Source: Mucisphaera calidilacus (lineage in GTDB: Bacteria > Planctomycetota > Phycisphaerae > Phycisphaerales > Phycisphaeraceae). Taken from it: a DNA stretch of 32,000 bases. Each line of letters starts with the position of its first letter. Position 1 is the stretch's first letter. Shown here piece by piece: positions 2,580 through 27,658 of the stretch. Under the pieces are notes generated by a model that saw nothing but the letters and a program-made list of their open reading frames with translations, was not told the origin of the DNA and did no database searches. The stretch is taken from assembly GCF_007748075.1 (NCBI RefSeq), contig NZ_CP036280.1, forward strand, positions 1,770,001-1,802,000, in the 5' to 3' direction. Position numbers and translations under genes: made by a program.

Positions 2580-2659
2580 CCGCCCCGAATCATCAACAGG
2601 CGATGGGAGCGGGCCCGGCAAGGCTCGATGTCGCAGGCAACCACGAAGGAATACACGGC

Positions 2660-4462
2660 ATGCTTCGTCACAGCGCTCGCTGCGCAGCGACGGCGCTCAC
2701 CCTGACACTCGCCGTGTCAGGCTGCGTGTCGCACGACGCACAAACCGATGCGGATCAACGCCCCAACATCCTGCTCATCCTCACGGACGATCAGGGCTAC
2801 GGCGACCTCGCCCTCCACGGGAACCAGCACCTCGACACACCCAGGATGGACGCGCTCGGAAACGCGTCCGTCCGTCTTGACAACTTCCACGCTGCCCCCG
2901 TCTGCTCACCAACACGCGCTTCACTGATGACCGGACGCCAGTTTCTGAGCACGGGAGTCTGGGGTGTTCACGGCGGACGCGATTACCTGCATCTCGGCGA
3001 AACCACCATCGCCCAGCGACTCTCGGCCGCCGGCTACGCCACCTACATGATGGGCAAGTGGCATCTCGGTAAAAGTGCCGCCTACCTGCCCCATCAACGC
3101 GGCTTCGACGAGTCGTGGATGATCACGGACCGTCTCTACATGCACACGGACCCGGTCTTCAATCACAACGGGACCACCGAGAAGCCCAAGGGCTGGACCG
3201 CCGAGATCCTGACCGACCTCGCCATCGACTGCATGTCACGCGAACCCGACAAGCCATGGTTCATCTACCTTGCCCACCCGCTCATCCACGAACCCTATTT
3301 CGCGCCCGACGAGCTCGTCACGAAGTACCGGGCGATGGGCCTCTCCGAATCGCTGGCGACGCTCTACGCCATGACCGAACACCTCGACACCGAGGTGGGT
3401 CGCGTCGTTGACGCCGTCACCGACCGGCAGAATCAGCGTGAAACGATCGTCATATTCATGGGTGACAACGGCCCCATCGGCAACCCGTGGAACCTGCCCC
3501 ATCTGACCGTCGAGGAGATGCAACAGCGAAACCCCCGCGGCTGGCGCGGCACTAAGGGCAATCTCTACGAGAACGGGGCACGGGTTCCCGCTTTCGTCTA
3601 TGCCCCGGAACGCTACCAGCCACGCATCGAGCAGTCTGACACCGATGTCGTGGACATCGTGCCCACCATCCTCGATCTCGCGAGCCTGCCGCACAACGAC
3701 GCCACGTTCGACGGTCTCTCCCTCGTGCCCCTGCTCGAAGGCAAGCCCGACGCGCTTCCCGATCAACGCCCGCTCTTCATGGCCAACCACGACGCACGCT
3801 GGCCCTCGTGGTCTTACCTCTACAGCCACCTGCCCGATCGTGAAGCACTCCGATTTGAGGATCAGGCTGTCGCCGTGCGCGAGGGCCGCTACAAGTTCGT
3901 GCTCGGCTACGGTTCGTCCGCACTCTACGACCTGGCCCTCGATACCGCGGAGCAGCAAGATATCTCAGACCAGCAGCCCGACGTCCGCGACCGCCTCGAA
4001 TCCACGCTCCGGGCGTGGTGGGAAGAGCGGGTTGCCGCCATGCCCGCCAGCTACCACATGCCCACTTTCCAGATCGGTCTGGACAACGCCCCCAGCACCT
4101 ACCTCTACGCCTGCGCTCCGGTCACTGTCCGAGGCGGGGTCCGCACCGCCAGCCACGCCGTGCACGACTGGCAGCAGGATGGCGACGCGATCGGTCTGTC
4201 GGTCAACGTCCTGCGGCCGGGCGCCTACAGCTTGCGTGCCGATCTGGTCGCTGGTGACAACCCCTCAGGATCCCTCACGGTGCGCATCGGTGATGCCACG
4301 ACGACGGCACCGATCAGCGAAATACGCTGGCCAACGATCGGAACCCTCGAACTCCCCGCAGACGAAAACATCATGTGGATCAGCCTCGACCACCCCGGGG
4401 TCGCTGACTCGCCGGTCATTCAAGAGTTGCGTGGTATAGAAATCACCCCAGCTCCACGTTGA
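2660..4462 (+). CDS. Formylglycine-dependent sulfatase, probable lipoprotein, with extra C-terminal beta-sandwich-like domain
   Basis: The ORF track gives 2603..4462. The ATG at 2660 is preceded by GAAGGA and yields MLRHSARCAATALTLTLAVSGC, a signal peptide plus a lipobox-like LAVSGC. Sulfatase signatures are LLILTDDQGYGD and the C-x-P-x-R motif CSPTRASLMTGR (Cys codon 2903..2905). About 150 extra residues follow the catalytic fold. Confidence 0.92.
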   Translation: MLRHSARCAATALTLTLAVSGCVSHDAQTDADQRPNILLILTDDQGYGDLALHGNQHLDTPRMDALGNASVRLDNFHAAPVCSPTRASLMTGRQFLSTGVWGVHGGRDYLHLGETTIAQRLSAAGYATYMMGKWHLGKSAAYLPHQRGFDESWMITDRLYMHTDPVFNHNGTTEKPKGWTAEILTDLAIDCMSREPDKPWFIYLAHPLIHEPYFAPDELVTKYRAMGLSESLATLYAMTEHLDTEVGRVVDAVTDRQNQRETIVIFMGDNGPIGNPWNLPHLTVEEMQQRNPRGWRGTKGNLYENGARVPAFVYAPERYQPRIEQSDTDVVDIVPTILDLASLPHNDATFDGLSLVPLLEGKPDALPDQRPLFMANHDARWPSWSYLYSHLPDREALRFEDQAVAVREGRYKFVLGYGSSALYDLALDTAEQQDISDQQPDVRDRLESTLRAWWEERVAAMPASYHMPTFQIGLDNAPSTYLYACAPVTVRGGVRTASHAVHDWQQDGDAIGLSVNVLRPGAYSLRADLVAGDNPSGSLTVRIGDATTTAPISEIRWPTIGTLELPADENIMWISLDHPGVADSPVIQELRGIEITPAPR

Positions 4463-4572
4463 ATTCAGGTTCATCGAGACTGCAGATTCTGGCACGATCC
4501 ACGCCATGGGTTAGGCATGCTCCCACACAAGCGAGGACGCAACGCGAGATCCTGAAATCGATGGATCAGTTC

Positions 4573-5613
4573 CTAAATTGTGGCCTTGGGTCGGAGTTGT
4601 CGTTGATGGGTCGCAGACAACAACAGCATCAACAACGCGCCTCCAGGCTCGGGAACGGACGCTGCGTACTCGTTAGTTCTGGTCTCGATGGTAAGCCCGA
4701 GCTCGGTATCGGCATCCGGCGGGCTCGTCGCCAGGGGTGCCGCCCGCAGAAAATGACTGGCCAGAACAGAGAGATCCAGAAGGTCAACGGTCAGATCAAG
4801 ATTGAAGTTGGCACCGGCCCACCCGGCGGTCTGCTGGAAGTAGGTGGCAAGAAGTGAAAGGTCGAGGAGATTCACCTCACCGTCGAGGTTGGCGTCGCCG
4901 GGGATCGTGCCCAGCACCTCGGTGATCATGAAGGACAGGTCGTCGCTATCGACTACGCCGGAGTCATCGAGATCGAACGCGGGGTCTGGGCTGCCAGCGC
5001 GAATACCGGCAACCAGCAGGTCGATATCGCTGGCATCAACTTCGTCGTCCTGATTGAGGTCGCCCGGCAAGCCTGACAGCGGCGTCAGCTCGATCCAGCC
5101 GTCGATAATCGTCGGAACGATCGGTCCGAAGTTGGTGGGGTTGTTGATTGTCTGAGACAGGATCAGCGGGAACGGCCCGTCATCTGCGAAGAAGCCGTTC
5201 GTGTCGATCACCAGCGTCGCCAACAAACCGTCAGCAAGAACATTACTTGAGAGCGTGGTCGTCGAATAGAAGGCGACCTGAGGAACGAGAATACCTGAGG
5301 CCGAGCCAAGTCCCGTGTTATTGCTCTCGAAGATGGTGCCGGTGAGGATATCGACACCCGTGATGGAGGGCGCGTCCGTGCCCCCTGCTTCGGGTCCGCC
5401 GTCGCCGATCTGGATGTTGAGGTTGACCCCCTGCACACGGGTGACACTCGTCTGCGCATAGATCTCGAAGGTCTGACCGGTGGTGTTCTCCAGCAACTCG
5501 ATCGTGCCGATCTCGGTCACGCTGTCGGGTCCGTGGATCGTAATCTGGGCGTGGCCCGAACGGGCTGACGCGAGCAGGATAATGGTGGTCAGGATGCGGG
5601 TAAGCGTACTCAT
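4573..5613 (-). CDS. Secreted PEP-CTERM protein: signal peptide, cohesin-like beta-sandwich region, two pairs of dockerin-like Ca-loop repeats, PEP-CTERM anchor
   Basis: 346 aa. Signal peptide MSTLTRILTTIILLASARSGHA. Residues ~23-178 have a cohesin-like pattern (GQTFEIYAQTS..VQGVNLNIQ..., DGLLATLVIDTNGF..GPFPLIL); this call is weak. Dockerin-like repeats: GDLNQDDEVDASDIDLLVAGI, DLDDSGVVDSDDLSFMI, GDANLDGEVNLLDLSLLATYF, ANFNLDLTVDLLDLSVLASHF (nt 4750..5064). The C-terminus VPEPGGALLMLLLSATHQRQLR is a PEP-CTERM motif plus TM segment plus basic tail (nt 4576..4656). Its ATG overlaps the giant ORF stop. Confidence 0.85.
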   Translation of the reverse strand: MSTLTRILTTIILLASARSGHAQITIHGPDSVTEIGTIELLENTTGQTFEIYAQTSVTRVQGVNLNIQIGDGGPEAGGTDAPSITGVDILTGTIFESNNTGLGSASGILVPQVAFYSTTTLSSNVLADGLLATLVIDTNGFFADDGPFPLILSQTINNPTNFGPIVPTIIDGWIELTPLSGLPGDLNQDDEVDASDIDLLVAGIRAGSPDPAFDLDDSGVVDSDDLSFMITEVLGTIPGDANLDGEVNLLDLSLLATYFQQTAGWAGANFNLDLTVDLLDLSVLASHFLRAAPLATSPPDADTELGLTIETRTNEYAASVPEPGGALLMLLLSATHQRQLRPKATI

Positions 5614-8600
5614 CAGCGGCCTCTCCCTGCCACGAGGTTCTCAAGCCGATCGAGCACCTCTGTGTTGGCGTGACGCCATCGGTCGAAGGGCGTGACACGC
5701 AGCGTGTCAAACAGGCCGAGTCGACCGCCCCGCTCGCGGGCCAGGCGTACGGGCTGCGTCCTGTCCACAGATACCTCCGTGCGGCGGCTGAACCAGTCAG
5801 AGGCAAAGTCATCGGGCACATCCGGCTCATCAGGAGGCGGTGCCGCGGCCGCGTGGGTGGTCTCGGCTTCACCAGGCGGCGGGAAGACGAGCGTGTCGTT
5901 GTCGGCGATGAGGAAGGTGTCGTAGTCGTTGGTCTGCCCGATGAGGGTGGGCGTGATGAAGTAGTTGACACGCAAGATGCTGATGTTGCTGTTGCCGGAG
6001 GCGATGTCGTCGAGTTGGACGTAAGCAATCTCGGTCTCCTCGCGGAGCCTGTCATCGACGGGGTTGATAGAGAACGTGGCCGACGTGGACCCGGCGGGGA
6101 TCGTGACGCTCGTGGGCAGGTGGTAGTCGCTGCCTTCTGTGGCTTCGGGATAGAGCGAGATCAGCGGACGCGGCGCGTCCGAGCCCAGGTTGATGACGGT
6201 GTCGGTGGTGGAGACACGGCTCTGCGTGACGAGGAAGGACGCGGGGTTCCTGATGAACGACTCGGCCGCCTGATTGTCGGTCGCGGTGATCGAGACGGTC
6301 GCGGTGTCCTGATCAAAGATGGAAACGGCCTCGACCCGGTCGAGGTCAAAGTCGACGTTGCTCGGGCCGGAGAGGCCGGTCATCTCGATCCAGATTGTTT
6401 CCGTGCCCTCAACGATGTTGTCGTTCTTGATCGTGATGTAGAGGTCTACGGAATGCGTGTTTGCGGGGATGGTGATGGTGCCGGACGGCAGGACGAAGTC
6501 ACTCCCGGCGGTCGCGGTCGATTGGCTCGTGACGGTGTAGTTGATGGTTACGGGCGAGGCCACGGAGGAAGCCGCGAAGGTTGGCGGGTTGGAGCGTATG
6601 TGGAAGAGCCTGAAGGTGAAGCGTGCGCTGGTGCCGTTACCCCCCGAGCCGTTGGGGTCGATGCCGGCCCGCGAGTCCTCGACGAGGATGAAGTGGGGGT
6701 CGTCGTTGTCGGTGATGGAGACGCGCGAGCGGATCGTGAGGTCACCCTTGAGGTTCTCGTCCGGAATAAATATATTGTCGTAATCGAGCGTTGCGGTAGT
6801 GACGTTGATGTAGGCGAACTCGCTGGGTTCGACGCGTGTGTTCTCGATGACCTGGATGCGGATCGTTCCGCTGCTCTCGCCGCTTTCAAGAACCAGTGCC
6901 GCGTTGACAAGACTGATGTCCGGGTCCGTTTCGGAGAAGAAGATGCGGACCTCGGCGTCGTTCGGGACGGCGTCGGTCAGGAAGATGGGCACATCGACAA
7001 ATCCATCACCCTCACCGACGGTGATGTCCGGGAAGACGATCTCGAGGCTGCGGCAGCCGTCGGGCATGAGTCCCGGAAGGTCGAGGCAGCCGGAGGGGAG
7101 CAGGCGGGCGGTGCCGTTCTCGGGCGTGATGCCGGGCAGGTTGAAGAAACCCTGAGCGGTGAACTCGGCCGTGAGCAGCGAGCCGTTGATGAAGGCGACG
7201 TCGACGGAGACGAAGGTGTCGAAGAGGTTGAGGCCGAGGACCTGAGCGAACATCTCGGCCGAGCCGCCGATGGTCAGGCTCGTTCCGGAGGCGATGAAGT
7301 TGAGCGTGCCGACAAGGGTCACGTCCGTGTCGTCGACGATGCCCGGATCGATCAGGATCGAGCCATCAAGGTCGAGTTCGAAGCTGTTGGAACTGACGAA
7401 GTTGCCGTTGATCGTCCTGCCGGAACCGGTCGTGTTGAAACGGAAGTCGGCCGACCCGTTGGCCGTGACGAGCCCACCAAACATCGACGACGACGCATCG
7501 AATCCGACGTAACCGTAGAGATCGATCACACCGCTTGTTGTTCGTGAGACGGTGACGTCACCGAACGACCCGAGATCGATGTCGATGGACTGGTTTCCCG
7601 ACTGGGATGAGAGTGTGCTGGAGCCCGAACCCGGGAGTGTGGCACCGGCTCGGATGACGGTCGGGATCAGGCCGTCGAAGTGGTCGCGGATCTCATCGGG
7701 CAGCCGGGCCTCGATGCCGAGTGAGCCGCTGACGTTGAGCCCGCTGGTATCGGAGAGCGCGATGATCCCCGTACCGCCGAGGGAGAAGATGTCCTCGAAT
7801 AAATCGACGCGAGCATCGCGCAGGCCGAGTTCGATGTAGCTGCCCGACCGGAAACTGATGGTCACGTCGATGTTGTCGGTGATGAAGTCCGGGATGGATC
7901 CCAGACTGCGTCCCATGTTGAAGGCGAGGTACGCCTCGCCGGTGACCTCGGCGACGTTGCGTACGCCGAAGCGACTCGCCTTGACGCCGAGATACCCGCC
8001 AACCGACGGATTGCTGGAGGAACCGCCAATCTCAAGGTAGGCACGCGCCCCCGCGGATCCGAAGAAGCCCATATCCGCGTTGGCGTCGACGAGCAGGTCG
8101 ATCTCGAAGGCGTCGCCTGTGATGGCGATCTGCGTGGCAAACAACCCGTTGAGGCCGACGTCGTAGGGAAGCTGATTGAGTTCAAGATTCCCGCGAGCAA
8201 ACAGGCGGATCGATTGCTCATCGAGAGTAAGCAGGCTCTGGAGGTCACTAGGCAGCGAAACGGGCGTGATGCCCGAGCCTGCGGGAACGCCGTCGAAACT
8301 GAAATCAATCGTTTGTACGTTCGAGCTCGAGTTGAACCCGAAGGCAAGGGTGGTGCCCGCGGAGGCGATAGCGAGGTTGGCGTTGGTGTCGAAGAGGATC
8401 CCGCCGTAGATGCCGTCGTCGACGAGTCGGGGGATCGGCCGACCGCCGATGTCGATGAAGGTCAGCTCGGTGGCCTTCTGGAGGGCCGCCGCGAAGGTCA
8501 CGTCGATGCCGACACTGTCCTGGAAGTTCGGCCCGAGGAAGTCGGCGAGCCCGTTGTCGCTGAGCGACCCCTCGCCGAAGACGACGACCCCGTCGTCGTT

Positions 8601-11600
8601 CGAGCGGAACTGGAACAGCCCTTCAAGTGTGACGGTGCCGAGGTTGAGCGTTCCGTCGACCCAGAGCGTGGCGGAGTCGCGTTCCATCTGGACGCTGTGC
8701 GTCTGCCCGTCGACGGTGAAGGTGAGGGTGCGGGGGCCGTCGGTGTTGTTGACGAGCAGCCGGACGTCGGCGTTTGCGCCGATGTTGATGGTCCCCTCGC
8801 TGCCCAGACTCAGCGTCCCGGTGTCGAGGTCGATGTTGAGGACGCCGTAGTTGCCCTCGTTGGCATCGAGGGTGAGTGAGCCGAAGAGGTCGCCTGAGAT
8901 CCCGCCGCCGAGGCCTTCGAGCACGCCAACCGACCCAGATACGGTGAGGTTGGCAAAGGCGTTGTTGGCCCCGGTGTTCTTGACGATGCTCAGGCGGAGG
9001 TCTTCGGCGCGGAGCACGTCGTCGCTGACGAAGGGCAGCGCCAGCTTGTCGGCCGCAGCGAGGAAGGCAAAGTCAGGCAGGAAGAGGTCGAGCGGGTCAT
9101 TGGGGAACTGCGCCTCGAAGAGCCCGACGGCACCCTCGACGAATCCGGGGATGTTGAGCGTCGCCGAGAGCCTGCCGCCGCCGTAGCGCTGGATGTCGTC
9201 GTTCGTCAGCAGCGGCGGCTGGACGTAGCGCGGATCCGATGGGTCGTTTGTCGGGTGCAGGGGCGGCGTGTCGTTAAAGAAGGGGCTGTAGAACTCCACG
9301 CGGCTGGTCGCGCCGAGCGTCTGCGGGTTGCCCTGGCTGTCGGTGAAGACAAACAGGTCGCCGGCGTTCGGGCCGAAGGAGTCGACCAGCCAGTCCTGGA
9401 TGATGCCGAGATCGAAACCGGCATCGAGACTGACGACGGGGATCGCAAAGTTGAAGTCGCTGGTGAAGTCGAGCATCCCATTGAGGAAATCATCCGCCGC
9501 TCCCCTGCGGTTAGCGGGCAGCAGGGCCTCGATGATCGACAGCCCGCCGGTGATCCCGGTCAACGGGTTGTCGGCCATGTCCCGGATCATCTCGCCGACG
9601 CTGACCTGCGTCATTCTGAGGCCGGTGTTCAGGCTGACGCCAAGCGGGCCGGATTTCGCCTCGATGTTGAGCCCTTCAACGCCGGCGGTGACGCGGCCCG
9701 TACCCAGATCAAGACCGAGGAGGCGAAGATCGAGGAAGCCGTCGATGTAAGCCGAGGCGATCAGATCGGCGGCCTGGGCAGTGGTGTCGTCGAAGCTGAA
9801 GACCGGCGACGCGGGCGGGTCGTACAGGCCGTTGCCGAAGTCCAGGAACGGGTCGCCGAGGTCGTACTGGCCGTTGCCGTTGAGATCGGTGTAGCTCTCA
9901 GTCAGGCTCTCGGAGACGTCGCGCACACCGTTGCCGTTGACGTCCTGGAAGGGCTCGGGCCTTGTGTAAGCACCGTCGCCGTCTGCGTCGATGAAGAGTT
10001 CGCCGTCGGGCAGGCCGTTGCCGTTGAGGTCGTAGAGGATATCGACGCCGAGGTCGAACCGGCCGTTGCCGTTGGTGTCGCTGAAGCCCTCGCTGAGTCC
10101 GATGATCCGGTCGCCTGCGCTGTCGTCCGAGGCAGGTGTATAGCCGTCGGGTATGCCGCCGGGGGAGCTTGCCTCCTCATCGAGGAAGACAGCCAGACTC
10201 GGCAGGGAGGACGGGTCGGCGATCGCCTGGCCGGCGGTGTCGAGAATCGTCTCGTGGAAAGTGACGACGCCGGTCGCCGGGTCTGCCGACCAGTTCAGTT
10301 CGCCGTCGTTGTTCTCGTCGATGAAACCGAGGTCGTTGGCGGCGTCGAAGCCTGCGGCCGAGGCTTCGTCCAGCACACCATTGCCGAGATCTTCCGCGAC
10401 GTCACCGATGCGGTAGGCCGGGAACCCACTGACCAGACTGTAGTCGATCAGGACATCGCCCTGACCGAAGACGAGGTCGCCGACACCCGTGCCCGGGTTG
10501 ATGTCGTCTGCCCAGGCCGTCGTGCCATGGATCAGGATGTCGAAGTAAGGGTCGTAGAAGGCGTTTCCGTTCAGATCGGCGAAACTGAAGCCGGTGTTGT
10601 CGGCCGGGGTTGCTGGGGCAAACGCCGGGTTGCCCTGATCGTCGGTGCCGGTGATCAGGTCGAGGAGGATCCGCTCGCCACTGCCGTAGAGCGGTCCGAC
10701 GACCGCGGGGATGGCGTAGTCGATGAAGCCGTCGACGAGTGTCGCCGGGCTCGGCGCAAAGATCTGTAGCGTGCCGAGGGGCGTGCCGTCGGTGAGTAGT
10801 TCGTTCACGCCGACGAAGTAGGCCGCGATCAGGTCGATGAGTTCGAGACCGGGTTCGCCGAGCGCGAGGATCGAATTGAAGTCGTCAAGATTGAGGACCT
10901 CGGAGCTCAATGTGTCCCAGGGGTCTTCGAGGTCACTCGCGGTCTGAGTTGTCAGGTTCGCGAGTGCTGCGAGGACGGTGAAGGGATCGGTCAGCAGGTC
11001 GGGCAGGAGCAATTCACCGGTCACGAGCAGCCCGCCGAAGGCGGTCATGTTGTCGTAGTTGCTCTGGAGGTAGACCGGGATCATGTCTTCCTGACCGTTG
11101 GGCAGCTCCGTATTCTGACCGTTGAAGGCGAAGTCGTCGGCGTATCCGAAGTTGTAGACACCCTCGGCGAAGAGGGTTCCGCCGATCGCCTGGCCGTTGT
11201 TGTCGGTCTGCTGCGGGCCGAAGATGATCCCGCTCAGGCGAGCGAGGTCGATGCCGTAGAGCCCGATCGTGCCGGCGATCCGCCCTTCCCACCCGGTAAA
11301 CGGATTGAGCGCGTCACCGAAGGCGTCGGCGATCTGCTGCTCGGTGGCGTCGGGGTTGACGAGGACATCAATGAGCACGCCAGGCAGTTGTGCCGTGAAG
11401 CCGAGTTGGAGTCGGTCGGTGATGCCGGCTAGCTGGAACCCGGGGTTGAGCTTGCCGAGGAAGTCGGTGGTCGTGAGGTCGAGGGTGATCAGCCGCTTGT
11501 TGATGACGAGGTCAACCTCATCCGTCGGGTTGCCGATCGGGAACCCGAAGAGTGTCGGCTGGATGGCACCACGCAGCACGAAGGAGGGGTTGAATGCGTT

Positions 11601-14600
11601 GTAGACATCGATTAAGGCGTCGTCGAGGCTGGACAGCGCCCCCTCGAAGGTGTCGATGAAGGCGTCGCCAAGCGTCGACGCGAAGGTCAGCGTCGGATGG
11701 GTCGCGATGGCCTGCTGAGCCTCAAGCCAGAAGGCGGCGACGGTCTCGGTGACGAGGGCCCACTGACCGTTGAGCGGTGTGCCGGGTGGTGTCGGGACCG
11801 ATCCGCTGAGCGAGCCGAGTTGGCTGAGCATGGCGTTCAGCAGGCCTAAGCCGGTCACTGGCGTGTTTGTGGCGAGTCCCAGGCCGGTCATGAGGTCGTT
11901 GGTTCGACTGGCCAGCCGGTCGGCTTCCAGTTGGGCGGCCACCTCGTCCATCAGATCCATCAGCGCGCCGCTGCCGGCCTGCAGGGCACCGTCAAGGATC
12001 GTCTCAAGCCCGATGAACCACGCCTCGATCATGCCCTCGGTTCGGAGTGTGCCGGCGAGTTCGGCGCGAGCCGGGAAGAGGAAGGAGAGCGGGTTGTCAG
12101 CAGGCGGGACGGCAACACCAAAGCTGATCGTGGGATTGAGGACGTCGCGTGCGTCGACGAGCACGCCACCGGTCCCAAAGGGCAAACCAAGGAATCGGAT
12201 GTCACCGGTGCCGAGAATCGAGAGCCCCTGCCCGTCGATCGCCTGATCGAGTGACGGGAGCGTCGCCGCGAACTCACCATTGACCGAGATCAGGCCGGCG
12301 ACGGCCAGGCTGCTGAGCTGCCCCCGGATCGCCATCGTTGCCGGCAGAGACCAGACCGGGTCGAGTCCCGTGCCGTTCCAGAGCTGACCGAGGATGTCCT
12401 CGATGACGGCGATGTCGGTGAGGTCCCAGTCGGCCGGCGAGGGGATATCGGCCGGGTTGATGACCGGCTGGGAGGTGTCGACGTCGGCGAGCAGTTCCTG
12501 GCCGAAGACAATCGTGCCGCCGCCGCCGAGTGTCAGGGTCGTGGGGCCGAGCGGGATCGGGACACCGAAGTCGACCGATGCCGCGATCGGGCCTGCGGTC
12601 GTGAGAACGAGCGTGCCCCCGCCGCCGTAGCTGGAGATCTTGAGCGCGCCGGAGATGGCGAGGTAGTAGATGTCATCGACATCACGCTCGCGGTCGCTGT
12701 TAGCGTCCGCCCTGCCGACGGTGATCGCGCCACTGACGGCCAGGCCGTCACCCAGATCCAGGCCGATCGCGAGCCCAAGCCCGTTGAGATCGTCGAGATT
12801 GACGACCTCGCCAAGGTCAAGCAGCGAGAAAGGAAGTCCCTCGGCTTGAGCTTTGAGGAAAGCCGCCTCGAAGGCATCCAGCACGTCTTCGGGAGACGAG
12901 CTGTCGAGGAAGTCCTCGAACGTCGTGCCCGCGAGCTGACCGGCCCAGTCGAGGAACTGCTCGCCGAGGTCGGTGAGCTTGTCCAGGTCGAAGCCAACAT
13001 CCGAGTAACTCACCTCGGCGTCAATGCCGACGTCGTCGAGCGCGTCACCGAGGAATCCTGGCAGACCGATCGCGCCATCAGTCAGCAGCTTGATGGCGGT
13101 CGGGTCGGCGATGCCGATGACCGGCGGGTCGTCGTCGGATTCGCTGTCGGACTCCTCGAAGGCGAAGAAGCCGTCCTCGAAGGTGACGGTGATCTCGTTG
13201 GTGCGCAGCGGCAGGAACCAGTCCTGCAGGGTGTCGAGCATCGAGCCCTCGTCGAGGCCGATGGTCGCCGACTCGATCGCGCTGAAGTCGGGCAGGGCTC
13301 CTGCGAAGATCGTGATGTTGTTCAGGCTCCCGTAGAGACCGATCGCCGGCGAGGCCAGGGTCAGCGAGAGATTCTCGATAAGAGGCGTCTCGGGGTCATC
13401 CGAGAAGTTCAGGGTGAGTGCGTCGTCGCCCGTCCCGGTGATGCCGGCCTGGAAGTAGTCGCCCAGCCCGAAGGAGAGCCCGTTGGTCGTGGCGCTGAGG
13501 ATGGCGAGATCAAGCGAGCCGCCAGACAGATCGTTCTCCAGCGTCCAGTCGAGACTGCCGTTGAGGCCGAAGCTGTCGAGAACGATGAAGTTGCCGAAGC
13601 CGACGGTGCCGTCGAGGAAGACGCCGCCCGTGAGATTGACCCGGGTCGTGTTGTTCTCAACCAGAACAGACCCGCGCAGCTCGGCCTCAAGCCCGTTGAA
13701 GTCGAAGTCGACGATGACGTCCGCATCCGGCGCGTCACCATCGACGGCGAGTTGGCCGATGAACTGGTCGGCGAGTTGATCGCCGGGCGTGGTCGGGTTG
13801 GCGTCGACTGAGGCGTCGAGGTCATAGAGCAACGGGTTGCCGTCGCCATCGACGCCGTAGCCTAGAAGAACCAGATCGCCATTGGCGTCGAGACGGTAGC
13901 CGGCGAAGCCGAGCGATCCCTCGAAGCCGAAGCCGCCGAACTCGAAACCCTCGAGACCGATGACCACGTCCTGCAGGATCGGGATGACGGGGAAGGTGTC
14001 GCCGCTCAGGTCGAAGACGACGTCGAAGGCAAAGCGGTTCGCGGCGAGGTCGACGGCCTGCCCGCCTGAGTTCGTCCCGGCAAGCGGTGTCTGACCGATT
14101 GAGACGATCGGGTCGAAGGGGAGACCGGTGATGATCGAGAAGTCGAAACCACCCTCAACACCAACGGTGAAATCGAGGAGATCGGTGTACTGATCCGGCG
14201 TCGCCCCAAACACGACCGAGACCTGATCGAGGTCGAAAGGCAGGATGCCGCCGAGGCCGAGTGTCGTCAGGATGCCCTCGCTGTCGCCGGTCGTCGAGAG
14301 GACGAGTTCGCCAAGACCCAGCCGTGTCTCCAGACCGCTCCCGTCATCCACGAGGTTCAGCCGCAGCGCCAGGTCGCTGTTGGCTGGCGTCGGGTTGATA
14401 TCAAATGCGATTCCGCCGAACGGGCCCGCTGCATCGCCAAAGTCGAGTGACGCCTGCTCGATGGTGAGCAGGTCGGTGGCGGGATCGTCGTCCAGCACAA
14501 GCTCGGGATCGGTCAGCACGAGATCGAAGACCGAGCCGCCGTTGTCGAACTCGGGGCCGACTTCCAGTTCTAGACTCAGAGCACTGGCCCGGAAAGTCCT

Positions 14601-17600
14601 GTCGTTCGGGCGGAGCACAACAGCCAGTCCCGAAGCGACCAACTCGACGCCGGGCAGGTTGAGCTCGGTCGATACGGCATTGAGGAGGACGTCAGGCAGC
14701 CCGCCGGCGAGTGATCCGTTGCGGTAGGTCAACTCCGGGACGACCAGCGTGGCGTCGGTCAGCTCGAAGAGCGACCGGCTGTCGAACTCAGGGCCGAACG
14801 TCAGGTCGCCGACGCTGTTGATGGTAAGACCCGTGAAGGAGAAGCCGTCGATCACGCCATCGCTGTCGACGTCGTCGTAGAGCGTGACGTTGTCGACGGT
14901 GGTGCTGATGCCCTCCAGCCCCTCGATCAGGAACTGCAGGGAGGCGCCGTCGGCAGAGGCGATAACCGGTGCTGTGGCGCCGGAGAAGTCGATGTTGGCC
15001 TCTGGAATCGTGAGGCGGGCGAGGCCTTCGATCTCAAGGATCACCTGCTCGAAGCTCGCGCCGGTCAACTCCGGTGTGCCCGAAAGCTGCGGCAGCCCGT
15101 CAGCACCCGGGCTTGCGATCAAGTCCCAGACAAACGTGCCAGTGACCGTTCCGGAGGTAGAACCGCCGAGGAAGGTCAGGTCGCCGGTGACAGTCGCTTC
15201 GCCGTCGAAGCCGATGAGAACCCCCCCGCCGGGTTGGGGAGTAACCGATGCTGCAACGATCACGGTGCCACCGAGCACGCCGGCGTCGGTGTCGGCCGCC
15301 GCGGAGAGGCTCAGGATGGCCTGCGCGGCGGGCGTCACGCCGATCAACTCCGCGGGGATCAGGCTGTTGGGGATGACGCCGAGCGACCCGGCCGCATCGA
15401 CCGGCGGAATCAGCAGGTAGCCACCGAGCAGAAGCTCTTGGTCGCCGGGCAGGCCGACCCTGAAATTCTCCAGCCCGATGCGCAGGCCCGGGATATCGAC
15501 AGGACGAACACCGCCGTTGTCTACGGAAAGCGCGACCGTCAAAGCTCCACCACTGGATAGATCGGTGAGTACGCCAGCATCGTCGTACTCCATCAGCGAG
15601 ACAACAGGATCCGTGCCGAGCAGCAGGCCAAGCTGTGCTTCGAAGGCGGACGTATCAATCGTCGCGGTGGCGCTGATGACGAACGTGCCCAAGTCCACGG
15701 TGCCGTCGGGGAGGCTGTCGAACGTCGCGTTGAGGCTGGTGAGCGCCGCCGGAATGATGTCACCCAGACCGCTCTGGAACGACCAGGCGGGCGGGATATC
15801 CAGATCGACGGACGAGAAGGCAACACCCCCGCCATAACGCAAACCGAAACCGTTGAACGTCGCGGTCGGCGTGTCGTCACCAGCCGTGAGCAGGTTGGCG
15901 GTCAGTTGGATGTTGCCGAAGTCGATCAGCGAATCGCCATCAACAGCATCCGGATCAAGGTTGAGGCTCACAGCGGGGCCGTTCGCAGAGCCATCGATGT
16001 CGAGTTCAAACAGGTCGGCGATGACGGCGTCGATTGAGCGCAGCTGGATCGCGAGCGTCCCGTGTGCAAGATCGAGCTGTGCCTCGACCGCTTCGGTGTC
16101 GTCGCCGCTGTTGTCATCGGTGATGACCAGACTGAAGGGGCCCCCCGGCAGGAGCGTGCCGCCCTCGCTCGAGAGATTGATATAACCCGTGACCTGCCCG
16201 TTTCGGTTCGAGAGGGTGTTGACGGCCAGCGTGGCGGCCCCGAGTTGCAGCACGGTCTGGCCGCCGACCCTGAGCGGAAATGCGCCAAGACTCAGCGATC
16301 CACCAATGAGCTCGAATGATTCAATCGTGAGCGGATCGTCATCCTCATTGAAGAGCGAGACGCTCTGTATCGATGCGTTGGGATCGAGTGTGGCAAAGAT
16401 GCCCTTGAAGTCGAGATCGAACCCGGTCGCGGTGGCCACAAGGCCGTCGGGCCCGGGCGTCGGCAGGTAGGTCATGCCGTCGATGGTCAGCGTTGCGACG
16501 TTGGGCACATCGATGACGAAACGATCGGCCTGGATCGAGGTGACTTCGAATTCGCCGGTGTAATCAAGAGACCCATTGACCTCTTCGAGCCGGACCGGCC
16601 AGTCAAAACTCACCGTGACGTTGCCCGAACCAGAGACACCGAAGACCGAGAGGTCCGAGACGGCGAGTGTGGCCTGACCGGTGAGATCGATCGCGTGCAG
16701 GCCGTGGGTAATGGTCATCGCCCCACCAACCTGAAGCCCGCCCGTCACCGTGCCGAGGCTGCTGGCCGAGACGGCGGCGAGATCGAGGTAGACCTCGTGG
16801 CCGGCGAGCGGTGCGCCGAGCTCAGCGGGCAGAGGCTGGGGCTCGCCTTCCTCGTTGAAGCCGCCAAGGGTCAGCGTCCCGGCCAGTGTGAGCGTTCCGG
16901 CGCCTGACGGCAGAGGCACTTCAATGTTCGAGAGCTGAAGCCGGACTGGCGGCGTCGCCGTCATCTCGAACGCCCCTCCGGCGTAGGCAAGACCAAAACT
17001 CAGGGGGTTGTCCGGTCCGGTCGCAACGAAACCGCCACTGTCGGCGTTGTAAACCTCAACGCTCAGTGAGAGCGATGGCGACCCGAGCAGCGTGCCGAGC
17101 TTGGTCACGAGTGTGTCGGGCCGCGGGACACCGGTGACGGCAAAACTCATCACGCCTTCGTCGCCGGGCGTGTAACCGCCCTGTATCCGGGAAAGCTCGA
17201 AGGGCACGTAGCCGCCCAGTAACAGCTTCTTGCTCACGTTCGCGGGCACGGCTACGTCGAGCGTGAAGGCGCCGGTATTGATATCGATCGACCCGACGTT
17301 GGGGATGGGGATGGCGTCTGCCTCGACACCATCGGACTCGGGCAACACGCCACTCAGCCCGCCGGGGAGAAGACGGAAGTCCTGCGTGCTGAAAACGATC
17401 TCACCGGTCTGGATCGGCTCGCCGTCGGCCAGCGGCCGGAACGTGAAGCCGTTGACACCAAGGGTGAGTTCCCCCAGTGTCAACACCGGTGCTCCGCCGA
17501 TGCCCAGCGAGACATCGCCAACCGTAAAAGTACCTGAGAAACGAAAGCCGTCGACCTGACCGTCGCCGTTGTCGTCGAAGCCCTCGACGCTGCCAAGAGT

Positions 17601-18677
17601 GAGTTCGAGCGTGCCCGCCTCAACCAGCCCGAAGCCGCTCGGCAGGTCGTTGAACGTCGCCTTGGCATCGGTAATGGTGATCAGGGCGTCGGCGTCTCCC
17701 GATGGAGGTACAAAACCGCCGTCAAGCACAAACCAATCGCCGATCGCAATCGTGACGTCCTGCGGCGCGACAACCGAAGATGGATCGATCACCCTGAGGC
17801 GATCGAGAAAGGTGGTCTGGTGGGTCCGTGCGATCTGCTGGTCGTCGCCGTTCACCTGACCATCACGGTTGAAGTCGTGTGGATCCGTGACGAATCGCGG
17901 GATAAAGGGCGGCAACGACGTCGCACCGGCACGAGCCGCGAGTTCGTCGGAGGCATCGACAGTAAAGGAAGCGAGGTCATCACCCGCTTCACCCGGCGCG
18001 CTGCCGAGATAGAACACGTCGGCTTCCGGGAGCCCCGTCGCGAGCGTCGGCAAGACCGTGATCTCAAGCCAGGCTCCGACCACAGCCTCGTTGGGGTCAG
18101 CAACACCGTCATGATCGTTAGCCTGCCAGGCGAGAAAAACACGGTCAGCGCCGCCGAGACCCGCGCCCTCGTCAACAAGGAGGTCAAAGGGATCCTCGGC
18201 GACGCCCCAGCTCGCTGGCTGGTTATCGTTGCCTGACCTGAAGGTGAAATCACTGGCCGACAGTTCCGATGGATCGGCCAATCCCTCAATGTCAACCACG
18301 ACACCCGTCAGGCCGGAGACGAAACTCGAAACATGCGCAAAGGTCGCGGGGCCGCTGTCAGGCAGCAGTGCGGTCTTGTCGGTGGCGATGGCGTGATCGT
18401 CGCCTGGAACCGCTCCGGGTGTCGAATTATCCCACGAGGAGTCGTTGTAATAGAGATTGCGGTAGACCACAGCAGCGCTGCTATCGGCCTCATCGAGCAA
18501 TCCGAGTTGGAGGCTGTCGCCGCTCAGGAGCAGGCGGTCTTCGAGAGATTCGAGCGTGGGCTTGTCCGAAGGTGTCTCACAGACAACCCGCTCACCCGAC
18601 CACGTCGGTTCAAAATGGCTGCCGAACGCCTCCAGCCCCGCGCCACGCGGGTTGTGTCCCTTCTTCCTGTTGCTCAT
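5613..18677 (-). CDS. Giant (4354 aa) acidic extracellular/surface protein; only the termini are assignable
   Basis: Single uninterrupted 13,065-nt ORF with C-ending codon usage like the neighbouring core genes. Its parts are an N-terminal basic leader with LESLEDRLLLS, a dockerin-like loop, a ~3500-aa G/L/D/T/F-rich core with no family I can name, an EF-hand-like DxNGNG cluster, three Calx-beta-like domains and an Arg-rich tail. Confidence 0.9.
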   Translation of the reverse strand: MSNRKKGHNPRGAGLEAFGSHFEPTWSGERVVCETPSDKPTLESLEDRLLLSGDSLQLGLLDEADSSAAVVYRNLYYNDSSWDNSTPGAVPGDDHAIATDKTALLPDSGPATFAHVSSFVSGLTGVVVDIEGLADPSELSASDFTFRSGNDNQPASWGVAEDPFDLLVDEGAGLGGADRVFLAWQANDHDGVADPNEAVVGAWLEITVLPTLATGLPEADVFYLGSAPGEAGDDLASFTVDASDELAARAGATSLPPFIPRFVTDPHDFNRDGQVNGDDQQIARTHQTTFLDRLRVIDPSSVVAPQDVTIAIGDWFVLDGGFVPPSGDADALITITDAKATFNDLPSGFGLVEAGTLELTLGSVEGFDDNGDGQVDGFRFSGTFTVGDVSLGIGGAPVLTLGELTLGVNGFTFRPLADGEPIQTGEIVFSTQDFRLLPGGLSGVLPESDGVEADAIPIPNVGSIDINTGAFTLDVAVPANVSKKLLLGGYVPFELSRIQGGYTPGDEGVMSFAVTGVPRPDTLVTKLGTLLGSPSLSLSVEVYNADSGGFVATGPDNPLSFGLAYAGGAFEMTATPPVRLQLSNIEVPLPSGAGTLTLAGTLTLGGFNEEGEPQPLPAELGAPLAGHEVYLDLAAVSASSLGTVTGGLQVGGAMTITHGLHAIDLTGQATLAVSDLSVFGVSGSGNVTVSFDWPVRLEEVNGSLDYTGEFEVTSIQADRFVIDVPNVATLTIDGMTYLPTPGPDGLVATATGFDLDFKGIFATLDPNASIQSVSLFNEDDDPLTIESFELIGGSLSLGAFPLRVGGQTVLQLGAATLAVNTLSNRNGQVTGYINLSSEGGTLLPGGPFSLVITDDNSGDDTEAVEAQLDLAHGTLAIQLRSIDAVIADLFELDIDGSANGPAVSLNLDPDAVDGDSLIDFGNIQLTANLLTAGDDTPTATFNGFGLRYGGGVAFSSVDLDIPPAWSFQSGLGDIIPAALTSLNATFDSLPDGTVDLGTFVISATATIDTSAFEAQLGLLLGTDPVVSLMEYDDAGVLTDLSSGGALTVALSVDNGGVRPVDIPGLRIGLENFRVGLPGDQELLLGGYLLIPPVDAAGSLGVIPNSLIPAELIGVTPAAQAILSLSAAADTDAGVLGGTVIVAASVTPQPGGGVLIGFDGEATVTGDLTFLGGSTSGTVTGTFVWDLIASPGADGLPQLSGTPELTGASFEQVILEIEGLARLTIPEANIDFSGATAPVIASADGASLQFLIEGLEGISTTVDNVTLYDDVDSDGVIDGFSFTGLTINSVGDLTFGPEFDSRSLFELTDATLVVPELTYRNGSLAGGLPDVLLNAVSTELNLPGVELVASGLAVVLRPNDRTFRASALSLELEVGPEFDNGGSVFDLVLTDPELVLDDDPATDLLTIEQASLDFGDAAGPFGGIAFDINPTPANSDLALRLNLVDDGSGLETRLGLGELVLSTTGDSEGILTTLGLGGILPFDLDQVSVVFGATPDQYTDLLDFTVGVEGGFDFSIITGLPFDPIVSIGQTPLAGTNSGGQAVDLAANRFAFDVVFDLSGDTFPVIPILQDVVIGLEGFEFGGFGFEGSLGFAGYRLDANGDLVLLGYGVDGDGNPLLYDLDASVDANPTTPGDQLADQFIGQLAVDGDAPDADVIVDFDFNGLEAELRGSVLVENNTTRVNLTGGVFLDGTVGFGNFIVLDSFGLNGSLDWTLENDLSGGSLDLAILSATTNGLSFGLGDYFQAGITGTGDDALTLNFSDDPETPLIENLSLTLASPAIGLYGSLNNITIFAGALPDFSAIESATIGLDEGSMLDTLQDWFLPLRTNEITVTFEDGFFAFEESDSESDDDPPVIGIADPTAIKLLTDGAIGLPGFLGDALDDVGIDAEVSYSDVGFDLDKLTDLGEQFLDWAGQLAGTTFEDFLDSSSPEDVLDAFEAAFLKAQAEGLPFSLLDLGEVVNLDDLNGLGLAIGLDLGDGLAVSGAITVGRADANSDRERDVDDIYYLAISGALKISSYGGGGTLVLTTAGPIAASVDFGVPIPLGPTTLTLGGGGTIVFGQELLADVDTSQPVINPADIPSPADWDLTDIAVIEDILGQLWNGTGLDPVWSLPATMAIRGQLSSLAVAGLISVNGEFAATLPSLDQAIDGQGLSILGTGDIRFLGLPFGTGGVLVDARDVLNPTISFGVAVPPADNPLSFLFPARAELAGTLRTEGMIEAWFIGLETILDGALQAGSGALMDLMDEVAAQLEADRLASRTNDLMTGLGLATNTPVTGLGLLNAMLSQLGSLSGSVPTPPGTPLNGQWALVTETVAAFWLEAQQAIATHPTLTFASTLGDAFIDTFEGALSSLDDALIDVYNAFNPSFVLRGAIQPTLFGFPIGNPTDEVDLVINKRLITLDLTTTDFLGKLNPGFQLAGITDRLQLGFTAQLPGVLIDVLVNPDATEQQIADAFGDALNPFTGWEGRIAGTIGLYGIDLARLSGIIFGPQQTDNNGQAIGGTLFAEGVYNFGYADDFAFNGQNTELPNGQEDMIPVYLQSNYDNMTAFGGLLVTGELLLPDLLTDPFTVLAALANLTTQTASDLEDPWDTLSSEVLNLDDFNSILALGEPGLELIDLIAAYFVGVNELLTDGTPLGTLQIFAPSPATLVDGFIDYAIPAVVGPLYGSGERILLDLITGTDDQGNPAFAPATPADNTGFSFADLNGNAFYDPYFDILIHGTTAWADDINPGTGVGDLVFGQGDVLIDYSLVSGFPAYRIGDVAEDLGNGVLDEASAAGFDAANDLGFIDENNDGELNWSADPATGVVTFHETILDTAGQAIADPSSLPSLAVFLDEEASSPGGIPDGYTPASDDSAGDRIIGLSEGFSDTNGNGRFDLGVDILYDLNGNGLPDGELFIDADGDGAYTRPEPFQDVNGNGVRDVSESLTESYTDLNGNGQYDLGDPFLDFGNGLYDPPASPVFSFDDTTAQAADLIASAYIDGFLDLRLLGLDLGTGRVTAGVEGLNIEAKSGPLGVSLNTGLRMTQVSVGEMIRDMADNPLTGITGGLSIIEALLPANRRGAADDFLNGMLDFTSDFNFAIPVVSLDAGFDLGIIQDWLVDSFGPNAGDLFVFTDSQGNPQTLGATSRVEFYSPFFNDTPPLHPTNDPSDPRYVQPPLLTNDDIQRYGGGRLSATLNIPGFVEGAVGLFEAQFPNDPLDLFLPDFAFLAAADKLALPFVSDDVLRAEDLRLSIVKNTGANNAFANLTVSGSVGVLEGLGGGISGDLFGSLTLDANEGNYGVLNIDLDTGTLSLGSEGTINIGANADVRLLVNNTDGPRTLTFTVDGQTHSVQMERDSATLWVDGTLNLGTVTLEGLFQFRSNDDGVVVFGEGSLSDNGLADFLGPNFQDSVGIDVTFAAALQKATELTFIDIGGRPIPRLVDDGIYGGILFDTNANLAIASAGTTLAFGFNSSSNVQTIDFSFDGVPAGSGITPVSLPSDLQSLLTLDEQSIRLFARGNLELNQLPYDVGLNGLFATQIAITGDAFEIDLLVDANADMGFFGSAGARAYLEIGGSSSNPSVGGYLGVKASRFGVRNVAEVTGEAYLAFNMGRSLGSIPDFITDNIDVTISFRSGSYIELGLRDARVDLFEDIFSLGGTGIIALSDTSGLNVSGSLGIEARLPDEIRDHFDGLIPTVIRAGATLPGSGSSTLSSQSGNQSIDIDLGSFGDVTVSRTTSGVIDLYGYVGFDASSSMFGGLVTANGSADFRFNTTGSGRTINGNFVSSNSFELDLDGSILIDPGIVDDTDVTLVGTLNFIASGTSLTIGGSAEMFAQVLGLNLFDTFVSVDVAFINGSLLTAEFTAQGFFNLPGITPENGTARLLPSGCLDLPGLMPDGCRSLEIVFPDITVGEGDGFVDVPIFLTDAVPNDAEVRIFFSETDPDISLVNAALVLESGESSGTIRIQVIENTRVEPSEFAYINVTTATLDYDNIFIPDENLKGDLTIRSRVSITDNDDPHFILVEDSRAGIDPNGSGGNGTSARFTFRLFHIRSNPPTFAASSVASPVTINYTVTSQSTATAGSDFVLPSGTITIPANTHSVDLYITIKNDNIVEGTETIWIEMTGLSGPSNVDFDLDRVEAVSIFDQDTATVSITATDNQAAESFIRNPASFLVTQSRVSTTDTVINLGSDAPRPLISLYPEATEGSDYHLPTSVTIPAGSTSATFSINPVDDRLREETEIAYVQLDDIASGNSNISILRVNYFITPTLIGQTNDYDTFLIADNDTLVFPPPGEAETTHAAAAPPPDEPDVPDDFASDWFSRRTEVSVDRTQPVRLARERGGRLGLFDTLRVTPFDRWRHANTEVLDRLENLVAGRGR
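5895..7034 (-). other. Three tandem Calx-beta-like domains (res 3882-4261) of the giant protein
   Basis: Three ~112-135-aa units. Each ends with the typical Calx-beta pattern: ..IENTRVEPSEFAYINVT..ITDNDD; ..ATAGSDFVLPSGTITIPANTHSVDLYITIKNDNIVEGTETIWIEM..IFDQD; ..ATEGSDYHLPTSVTIPAGSTSATFSINPVDDRLREETEIAYVQL..IADND. Confidence 0.7.
9830..10330 (-). other. Cluster of EF-hand/dockerin-like Ca-binding loops inside the giant protein (res ~2780-2950)
   Basis: DENNDGELNW, DTNGNGRFD, DLNGNGLPDGELFIDADGDGAY, DVNGNGVRD, DLNGNGQYD. The plus strand shows ccgttgccgtt four times (from 9871, 9928, 10015, 10063), which is NGNG on the coding strand. Confidence 0.6.
17778..18554 (-). other. N-terminal module of the giant protein (LESLEDRLLLS motif, conserved planctomycete-type N-domain, single dockerin-like loop)
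   Basis: LESLEDRLLLS is residues 42-52 (nt 18522..18554). Residues ~70-265 read VVYRNLYYNDSSWDN...DDHAIATDKTALLPDSGPATFAHVSSFVSGLTGVVVDIEGL...SASDFTFRSGND...DRVFLAWQ...AWLEITVLPT...ADVFYLG. From memory, this resembles an N-terminal module common in large planctomycetal exported proteins. HDFNRDGQVNGDDQQIAR (nt 17826..17876) is a dockerin/EF-hand-like loop. Confidence 0.5.
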
Positions 18678-19051
18678 ACGCTCATCCGGGACGCCCGGAA
18701 CTCAGAGCGTCCTGCTTCCATCTTGAGAGTGGATAAGTAGTATCCCTTAAGCAATACACCCTAATGACGCGTCGGGTTTCGCTCAATAGGTTATGTGGCT
18801 TTTTATGAGAAAAACGCGCACCACAGCAGGTCTGGAATGGGTAAGAAGCTGGCCGGGCCCCTTGTCGTCCGTCGCCGTGGCATCCCGGAATCCTGAGTGT
18901 TGACCCGCTGTTGATTCTTAGCCTGTGCTGCTGAGAACAAACCCACCACGCCTGCCCAACACAGCTGTGACAACGGCCGCGGCCACTGTAATAAACCATT
19001 CCCTAGAAGTCACTTAGTCGCTGGGAGTCGCCCTCGGCCGGGCGGAGACAC

Positions 19052-19099
19052 AAGCGAGGGTGACGGGACTCGAACCCGCAACCTTCGGATCGACAGTCC
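19052..19099. repeat. Orphan 3' fragment of tRNA-Asp (putative distal att site), identical to 26062..26109
   Basis: aagcgagggtgacgggactcgaacccgcaaccttcggatcgacagtcc is identical at all 48 positions to 26062..26109. The flanking bases differ on both sides (19051 c vs 26061 t; 19100 t vs 26110 g). Confidence 0.92.
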
Positions 19100-19130
19100 T
19101 GAAGAGAATTCACGTAAGCCTATTTGCTGC

Positions 19131-27634: not shown

Positions 27635-27658
27635 TCACACGCCCCCGACAATCAACCA

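Follow-up and report, generated by a model that had tools for sequence, protein, structure and literature searches.

Giant genes are a recognized hallmark of Planctomycetota, and more than 90% of the giant genes of bacteria have been reported to encode surface proteins or polyketide synthases and nonribosomal peptide synthetases (PKS/NRPS) (PMC5177795). The gene analyzed here lies at positions 5613..18677 on the minus strand of a 32,000-nucleotide stretch of the Mucisphaera calidilacus genome (the window) and comprises 4354 codons plus a stop codon; its product, the giant protein, has a mass of ∼453 kDa and an isoelectric point (pI) of 4.05. Among described proteins, the planctomycete LEPR-XLL giant proteins (PF07595, NF012209) resemble it in phylum, size, a likely N-terminal motif in place of a Sec signal, a predicted surface location, and largely unannotated sequence (PMC5177795). 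The LEPR-XLL class is, however, set by a 15- to 25-amino-acid (aa) motif and by size rather than by core domains, and the repeat (R) modules and central region of the giant protein have no described counterpart in it.

Type I-secreted, calcium-dependent giant adhesins of the LapA, SiiE, and MpIBP type are, like the giant protein, very large, acidic, and poor in Cys and made up of tandem beta modules; these adhesins have calcium sites where one module joins the next and domains for ligand binding toward one end. The giant protein differs from them in its N-terminal signal and in having no RTX nonapeptide or BIg repeats (Pfam, E ≤ 1), and no type I secretion genes are present in the window. Protein sorting by PEP-CTERM and exosortase has reportedly been linked to exopolysaccharide loci, in work attributed to Haft et al. 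2006. Noncellulosomal cohesin-dockerin assemblies ("planctosome") have been proposed for Planctomycetota (PMC6461901). The present locus resembles such assemblies in placing dockerin or dockerin-like modules on probable surface proteins unrelated to cellulose degradation, namely, the giant protein, the product of the adjacent partner gene, and the product of a gene at 19951-22305, and differs in that no cohesin was identified here.

Because giant surface genes (PMC5177795) and noncellulosomal dockerin systems (PMC6461901) have been described, this kind of protein is already known. New are the R module and central region, neither of which is represented in Pfam, NCBIfam, or PDB, as well as the very small two-phylum family and the coupled dockerin/PEP-CTERM partner. 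An earlier note on this DNA had proposed a new class of surface fiber or adhesin; an extracellular location is indeed likely and the core is not covered by the curated families and solved structures searched, but giant planctomycete surface proteins were already on record (PMC5177795), and a fiber or adhesin role is something that we infer.

We favor, with modest confidence, the reading that the giant protein is a ∼450-kDa, extremely acidic, calcium-binding extracellular protein that forms a calcium-stiffened surface fiber or a part of the gel-like matrix of M. calidilacus. What makes an extracellular or surface location likely is the presence of the export motif, a dockerin-like module, and Calx-beta domains, together with the extreme acidity of the protein and its coupled dockerin/PEP-CTERM partner. 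The calcium-stiffened fiber or matrix reading is favored because all assignable parts of the protein point outside the cell and because of the matrix phenotype of M. calidilacus Pan265, a motile marine member of the class Phycisphaerae with a 3.49-Mb genome of 63.9% G+C (PMC8882080). Pan265 cells are embedded in a dense extracellular matrix without mutual contact, a "polar matrix or fibre" has been reported, and the viscous colloid that arises in culture cannot be resuspended (PMC8882080). That study singles out only a gene encoding 13,493 aa (threshold, >15 kb) and does not discuss the present one.

The giant gene and its protein family

The giant open reading frame (ORF) is a real gene. At 62% GC, with ∼0.029 stops per random codon, the chance of an open frame this long is ∼e^-127 by our own arithmetic, and intact ORFs of the family (4354, 4359, and 4809 aa) are present in three independent assemblies. 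When one genome per species was scanned, the sole relative was in Mucisphaera sp. (locus L003); its intact 4359-aa ORF is collinear with the giant protein over residues 1-4349 at 57% identity. When the two orthologs were aligned by codon, nucleotide identity was 0.68, 0.76, and 0.39 at positions 1, 2, and 3, respectively, and 58% of the identical amino acids were encoded by different codons; the protein sequence is therefore subject to purifying selection.

The composition of the product suits a secreted calcium-binding protein: in addition to the pI of 4.05, it has only three Cys (residues 33, 3864, and 3875), 22 Lys (0.5%), and a charge (K+R-D-E) of -470. Its commonest residues are L (12.3%), G (11.9%), D (9.8%), A (8.8%), and T (7.9%); F accounts for 5.7%, and a regular-expression count gives 10 D-x-[DN]-x-[DN]-G motifs. 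The 4354 uninterrupted minus-strand codons and the Lys-poor, D/G/L/T/F/A-rich, strongly acidic product described in the earlier note are borne out, as are its count of three Cys and its positions 33 and 3875; the remaining Cys, placed at ∼3863, is at 3864.

Judged by four-fold sites, the genes of the window fall into two sharply distinct codon usage classes, independent of strand. The giant gene (55.5% C at the third codon position), a sulfatase gene (2603-4462), and a 313-aa PEP-CTERM gene (22753-23694) are C-rich at these sites (0.51 to 0.55), whereas the genes for a GFO oxidoreductase and HemD/CobA (26335-27651 and 29003-30553) and for a 784-aa PEP-CTERM protein (19951-22305) are G-rich (0.54 to 0.65). 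The Mucisphaera sp. ortholog of the giant gene uses G-ending codons. The C-ending usage that had been called host-like is thus matched by the sulfatase and one PEP-CTERM neighbor but not by the three G-ending genes.

The giant protein is no orphan, as it might have appeared from the earlier note, and is one of a small group of related giant proteins that has no family name. A word-index search was ill suited to its composition. The family was revealed when 1.84 billion representative proteins were searched exhaustively by HMMER, with residues 300-1300 as the query (E ≤ 1e-3); this search returned only 27 relatives, none of them characterized. All are unnamed or "hypothetical" apart from the Mucisphaera sp. 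ortholog (P0003; WP_428388470.1), which is labeled only "Calx-beta domain-containing protein" and is 57 to 58% identical over the whole length. The metagenomic protein P0007 (4809 aa; locus L005, 6001-20430), likewise an ortholog, is 49% identical over residues 831-4261. Both resemble the giant protein in module order, Cys loop, and three Calx-beta domains and are likewise uncharacterized; P0007 differs in its hydrolase-like insert and in having neither the C-terminal tail nor the partner gene. The insert, at residues ∼560-1000 of P0007 between the N-terminal module and the R modules, resembles alpha/beta-hydrolases, with weak matches to LCAT, PGAP1, and DUF7379.

More distantly, P0004, P0005, and P0011 (the last from a Planctomycetota metagenome-assembled genome) are 28 to 30% identical over residues ∼957-2592, and the cyanobacterial proteins P0013, P0016, and P0018, together with P0021, have only the R module in common with the giant protein. 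One member of the cyanobacterial clusters is named Synechococcus lacustris. In these relatives the R module is combined with other surface-protein domains: P0013 and P0018 end in DUF4114, and P0021 is an FG-GAP/VCBS protein of Fuerstiella. Partial relatives (P0001, P0002, and P0030) and two loci (L001 and L004) were added by index searches and a metagenome scan; a search with the slice of residues 2100-3100 gave two partial relatives, the R-module profile in the index one, and the metagenome scan one distant locus. On these sequence matches, the family is small and spans Planctomycetota and picocyanobacteria. In L001 (ERZ26696514 ctg231475, 2.6x coverage), the homolog appears as four overlapping called genes, broken up by frameshifts that are most likely low-coverage sequencing errors.

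Domain organization of the giant protein

The first ∼60 residues contain no hydrophobic Sec-type segment, in agreement with the earlier note, and carry instead a match to the presumed planctomycete cell-surface export motif LExRxLLS (KPTLESLEDRLLLSGD, residues 39-54; 18516..18563, minus strand). The motif, counted more narrowly as residues 41-54, is preceded by a basic stretch, MSNRKKGHNPRG, and the relatives have the same layout. By eye, LESLEDRLLLS fits LExLExRxLLA. The NCBIfam model NF012209 (LEPR-XLL) scores 18.2 bits on residues 1-300 (cutoff, 17) and 14.9 bits on the whole protein, and PF07595 scores 12.1 bits, below its cutoff of 25.5. The motif is kept in P0004, P0005, P0007, P0021, and the L003 ORF. 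The consensus RRLxxExLExRxLLA is presented in PMC8567305 (citing Studholme 2004) as a presumed novel export signal of planctomycete cell-surface proteins, and the giant protein would be exported to the cell surface by way of its LExRxLLS motif. In L003 (4277-17356 of NZ_CBDIIJ010000002.1), the RefSeq protein WP_428388470.1 (4273 aa) starts with MHRSVFYNN, downstream of the conserved LEQRILLS motif; because the longer ORF retains that motif, the annotated start is probably too late.

A conserved N-terminal module without a family match follows (residues ∼70-229; 17991..18470, minus strand), which recurs at 33 to 54% identity in P0003, P0006, P0007, P0010, and P0020 and in large LEPRxLL proteins of L006 and L009. 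Directly after it lies a dockerin-like domain (residues ∼230-292; 17802..17990, minus strand) with a degenerate loop 1, a loop 2 of DFNRDGQVNGDD, and then a helix. Together, the two (residues ∼70-292, the N-module) also head otherwise unrelated large LEPRxLL proteins of loci L006 and L009. The N-module profile (A7) matches 13 type I dockerin sequences in PDB (best E = 1.2e-3), and Pfam Dockerin_1 (PF00404) is found in four of nine N-module homologs (best E = 2.4e-4); the giant protein's own copy gives no PF00404 match.

The body of the protein begins with three tandem R modules of ∼430 to 530 aa each, which are only 14 to 25% identical to one another. All are encoded on the minus strand. With a hidden Markov model (HMM) built from the family, copy 1 (residues 337-777; 16347..17669) is matched as one domain at 1.7e-144, copy 2 (769-1268; 14874..16373) over residues 769-886 and 911-1268, and copy 3, the most diverged (1261-1791; 13305..14897), over residues 1261-1442 and 1451-1791. 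Comparison of four-sequence windows by hhalign gave probabilities of 85 to 97% overall (95 to 97% for copy 2 against copy 1 and 85 to 93% for copy 3). A DDxxDGxxDGF-type loop opens copies 1 and 3, as the calcium-type DDNGDGQVDGF in copy 1, and is degenerate in copy 2. The earlier note had seen loose recurrences rather than clean tandem repeats in the core, a description superseded by these three diverged tandem modules at residues 337-1791 and by a weak repeat pair at 3260-3400 and 3720-3830. Neither a BLASTP self-comparison of the protein (no repeats at E < 1e-3) nor Tandem Repeats Finder, which gave only a trivial 21-nt array, showed clean repeats; the modules became visible only with family HMMs and hhalign.

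Copy 1 was modeled by AlphaFold2 from a 27-sequence alignment of module copies, with a mean per-residue confidence (pLDDT) of 83.8 and a predicted template modeling score (pTM) of 0.76. The model is nearly all beta, its antiparallel strands following one another and reaching 20 residues in length, and most strands are predicted to be hydrophobic on one face and polar on the other, as in a soluble layered sheet. A Foldseek search found no match at E ≤ 1e-3 in PDB or BFVD; the top PDB matches were curved beta-sheet proteins and were not significant (best template modeling [TM] score, 0.19; E ≥ 0.026). The module also has no match in Pfam or, by profile search, among PDB sequences. Structure prediction by slices, as the earlier note had recommended, thus gave a confident all-beta R module without a Foldseek match and a poor result for residues 1800-2990.

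The central region (residues ∼1792-2640; 10758..13304, minus strand) contains the conservation peak of the protein: residues 2001-2200 (12078-12677) are 86% and 78% identical to the Mucisphaera sp. ortholog, versus a mean of 57%. The region is common to P0004, P0005, and P0011 at 28 to 30% identity, and motifs such as YGxxGxLxLTTAGP and DxRDxxNP are invariant in it. For residues 1800-2990, AlphaFold2 had only eight sequences to build on; the resulting model is unreliable (pLDDT, 48), and the corresponding Foldseek output is therefore meaningless. In this low-confidence model, a beta meander may be followed by helices at ∼2216-2361 (11595-12032), where a helical stretch starting at ∼2216 had been suggested; the prediction agrees in place, at low confidence. 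A profile of the region found no match among PDB sequences, nor did tblastn against plasmids.

Farther toward the C terminus, 6 of the 10 D-x-[DN]-x-[DN]-G motifs form a cluster of EF-hand-like loops (residues 2787-2936; 9870..10319, minus strand) that is 61 to 75% identical to the Mucisphaera sp. ortholog; Pfam EF-hand families gave no match at E ≤ 10 on residues 2700-3100. The cluster falls where the earlier note had seen such loops (∼2780-2950). The beta-rich region that follows (residues ∼2990-3860; 7098..9710, minus strand) has no match in Pfam or PDB sequences and is common only to P0003, P0007, and L001. Its weak internal repeat is the pair already mentioned, aligned by hhalign at 86 to 88% probability. 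A loop bounded by the Cys pair, CLDLPGLMPDGC (residues 3864-3875; 7053..7088, minus strand), is kept in both full-length relatives, P0003 and P0007.

Three Calx-beta domains (5931..7040, minus strand) occupy residues ∼3880-3984 (HMM match, 3917-3984), 4014-4128, and 4145-4249, as had been proposed for residues 3882-4261. PF03160 (cutoff, 27) scores 36.2 bits when the whole protein is searched and reaches 46.8 bits, in three stretches, on the C-terminal slice; a local Calx-beta HMM finds three copies each in the giant protein, P0003, and P0007. The protein ends in a 93-residue tail (residues 4262-4354; 5616..5894, minus strand), Pro/Asp-rich and then basic, which is present in the Mucisphaera sp. 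ortholog and absent from P0007.

The earlier statement that a core of ∼3500 aa matches no recognized family has held up: residues ∼300-3860 have no significant match in Pfam, NCBIfam, or PDB sequences. With the whole protein as query, Pfam identified only Calx-beta, and a search by slices (E ≤ 10) added nothing for residues 300-3860. NCBIfam gave no more than the N-terminal LEPR-XLL and a weak match to sodium/calcium exchangers (Calx), and phmmer against all PDB sequences matched only the Calx-beta region (E ≥ 0.1), plus one chance-level match.

The partner gene and the neighborhood

The downstream partner gene (346 aa; 4573..5613, minus strand) is translationally coupled to the giant gene, its start overlapping the giant gene's stop by 1 nt (TGATG). 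Its product consists of a Sec signal, an N-domain of 155 aa, a pair of dockerins, and a VPEP-hydrophobic-basic tail and is an exact match to QDU71552.1/WP_145445693.1 of M. calidilacus from the complete Pan265 genome, which assigns the window to that strain. Pfam Dockerin_1 (PF00404) matches it at 2.4e-10 in two stretches (40.9 bits; cutoff, 22.9), and PDB dockerins match both copies. The C terminus, VPEPGGALLMLLLSATHQRQLRPKATI, gives no match to the PEP-CTERM family PF07589 at E ≤ 10. Homologs of the N-domain are planctomycete PEP-CTERM proteins of ∼200 aa, and PF07589 was found in 14 of the 16 N-domain sequences scanned, among which the window entry was an N-domain slice without the tail. 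These PF07589 matches in N-domain homologs and two more PEP-CTERM-type genes upstream of the giant gene liken the locus to PEP-CTERM/exosortase systems; it differs from them in that the giant protein has no PEP-CTERM, the partner's tail is degenerate, and the window contains no exosortase gene. An apparent resemblance of the N-domain to cohesin, noticed by eye, was not supported at the sequence level: a 16-homolog profile found no cohesin among PDB sequences (E ≤ 10), and there was no Pfam cohesin match.

A coupled dockerin/PEP-CTERM partner is present at three of five family loci (the window, L003, and L001). In L003, the ortholog (55% identity) overlaps its giant gene by 4 nt; in L001, a split dockerin/PEP-CTERM gene with a different N-domain stands directly after the homolog. 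No dockerin/PEP-CTERM gene adjoins P0007 or the L004 homolog, and the partner was accordingly rejected as an obligate companion of the family; a dockerin/PEP-CTERM neighbor beside homologs, which the earlier note had asked about, is present at two loci and absent at two. Partner-like genes also occur elsewhere. In L006 to L008 they are flanked by giant-type N-module genes (three in L006 and L007 and two in the shorter L008), in L009 one such gene comes directly after, in L012 the preceding gene encodes at least 2960 aa, and L011 and L013 have nothing comparable. At L006 (ERZ10759729 NODE_4813, 3-16175), a partner-like 217-aa PEP-CTERM protein is encoded among three large genes, each of which opens with LEPRxLL and a dockerin-like N-module as in the giant protein and continues with unrelated domains. 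From this arrangement, the small PEP-CTERM protein may be functionally tied to the large proteins that carry a dockerin-like N-module.

The two PEP-CTERM-type genes upstream are on the plus strand, divergent from the giant gene. One (19951-22305) encodes a secreted 784-aa protein with a dockerin pair and the tail LPEPSGAVVLGLGAAGLMRRR, and the other (22753-23694) a secreted 313-aa protein with the tail IPEPATATLLTIGCFTLARRLGY. A comparable dockerin/PEP-CTERM gene is found upstream of the L003 ortholog, also in divergent orientation; synteny with Mucisphaera sp. is confined to the giant and partner pair. A gene-free stretch of 1.27 kb with lower G+C (0.53 to 0.60) separates the giant gene from the divergent PEP-CTERM gene (18678-19950), and the 105-aa ORF within it (18682-18999), which has no family match, looks spurious. 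An IS3-family element (24013-25222, plus strand; OrfA with HTH_Tnp_1 and OrfB with HTH_21, rve, and rve_3 in a shifted frame) lies ∼0.8 kb from a tRNA-Asp gene (26064-26138, minus strand), the only Rfam match in the window, and may lie at the border of a genomic island holding the giant gene. The window also encodes a LacI regulator, the sulfatase, the GFO oxidoreductase, and HemD/CobA, with no secretion-system or exosortase gene. Two ORFs without family matches, 1440-2621 (minus strand) and 27779-29713 (plus strand), have odd Arg/His/Gly-rich translations and are probably not genes because they overlap or are antisense to better-supported genes.

Proposed role and alternative explanations

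Calcium binding, tethering, and the link to the matrix are proposed from sequence features, as follows. The giant protein would be directed to the surface by its LExRxLLS motif, in keeping with the literature on that motif, in place of the Sec signal that it lacks. Its dockerin-like domain, at the end of an N-module with weak match statistics, may tether it to a surface partner. Its long body, made up of the R modules, a central alpha/beta region, the six EF-hand-type loops, and the beta-rich region, would be folded and stiffened by seawater calcium, and the three C-terminal Calx-beta domains may bind matrix polymers or other copies in a calcium-dependent manner. The Sec-exported partner, with its two dockerins and PEP-CTERM-type tail, would be produced together with the giant protein and could link it to the exosortase/exopolysaccharide envelope.

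Several points weigh against this reading. The connection between the giant protein and the matrix phenotype is circumstantial. The export motif exceeds the NCBIfam cutoff on the N-terminal slice only and falls under the Pfam cutoff, the protein's own dockerin-like segment is under Pfam detection, and the partner's PEP-CTERM tail is degenerate and without a Pfam match. The partner is missing beside P0007 and the L004 homolog, so that it is not obligatory, and the one in L001 has a different N-domain. The most conserved part of the protein, the central region, is also poorly modeled, and its conservation could reflect a nonstructural activity.

A more ambitious version of the proposal holds that the R module and central region are new folds of an unrecognized class of calcium-dependent matrix proteins in Planctomycetota and picocyanobacteria, and that this protein is a main cause of the gel-like, contact-free matrix, tethered through noncellulosomal dockerin/PEP-CTERM anchoring by the coupled gene. 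We regard this version as rather improbable.

The main rival, itself rather unlikely, is a secreted enzyme or toxin carrier, in which residues ∼1950-2650 would be catalytic or self-processing and the beta modules would only present or deliver them. Such an activity would account for the peak of identity in the central region and for its Asp, Arg, and Asn residues, which do not vary even among relatives of 30% identity; that the scaffold is able to hold enzymes is indicated by the lipase-like alpha/beta-hydrolase insert of P0007, and a sulfatase gene is nearby. However, with E ≤ 1 as the limit, neither single sequences nor profiles matched any such family in Pfam, NCBIfam, or PDB sequences, the invariant residues lie in Gly/Pro-rich turns typical of structural motifs, and the P0007 hydrolase matches are below Pfam thresholds.

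The R-module relatives in picocyanobacteria such as Synechococcus lacustris raise the prospect of a surface-layer or motility component like the giant surface proteins of swimming Synechococcus, in place of a matrix or adhesive role. A likeness to SwmB-type proteins is treated here as a lead only. Pan265 is motile (PMC8882080), but the cyanobacterial relatives have the R module alone in common with the giant protein, and there are no motility genes in the window, which leaves this explanation a minor one.

The 15- to 20-residue antiparallel strands with one hydrophobic face in the model of R copy 1, and the curved beta-sheet proteins among its nonsignificant top Foldseek matches, would also suit a bridge-like lipid or polymer conduit of the AsmA/TamB type spanning the wide planctomycete periplasm. 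This is very unlikely: there is no Pfam match to AsmA, TamB, or DUF490 at E ≤ 1, no Foldseek match has a TM score above 0.19, the protein has no N-terminal membrane anchor, and its extreme negative charge and its Calx-beta and dockerin modules indicate a location outside the cell. An assembly artifact or decaying pseudogene, for which we see no point in favor (the sole fragmented copy is that of the 2.6x-coverage metagenome contig L001), is extremely unlikely in view of the intact ORFs in three assemblies, the much lower conservation of the third codon position than of the first two, and a neighboring partner gene identical to that of the complete Pan265 genome.

Planctomycete genomes are rich in giant genes that defy annotation. 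The R module, a confidently modeled beta module of ∼450 aa, merits a Pfam entry and connects giant proteins of Planctomycetota with those of freshwater or marine picocyanobacteria. If the function proves to be ordinary adhesion, the gain would be mainly better annotation. Together, the giant protein and its partner suggest a testable way in which a dockerin and a PEP-CTERM protein could anchor surface proteins, and the small (3.5-Mb) genome, the cultured type strain, and the easily scored viscous-colloid phenotype make the giant gene a practical entry point.

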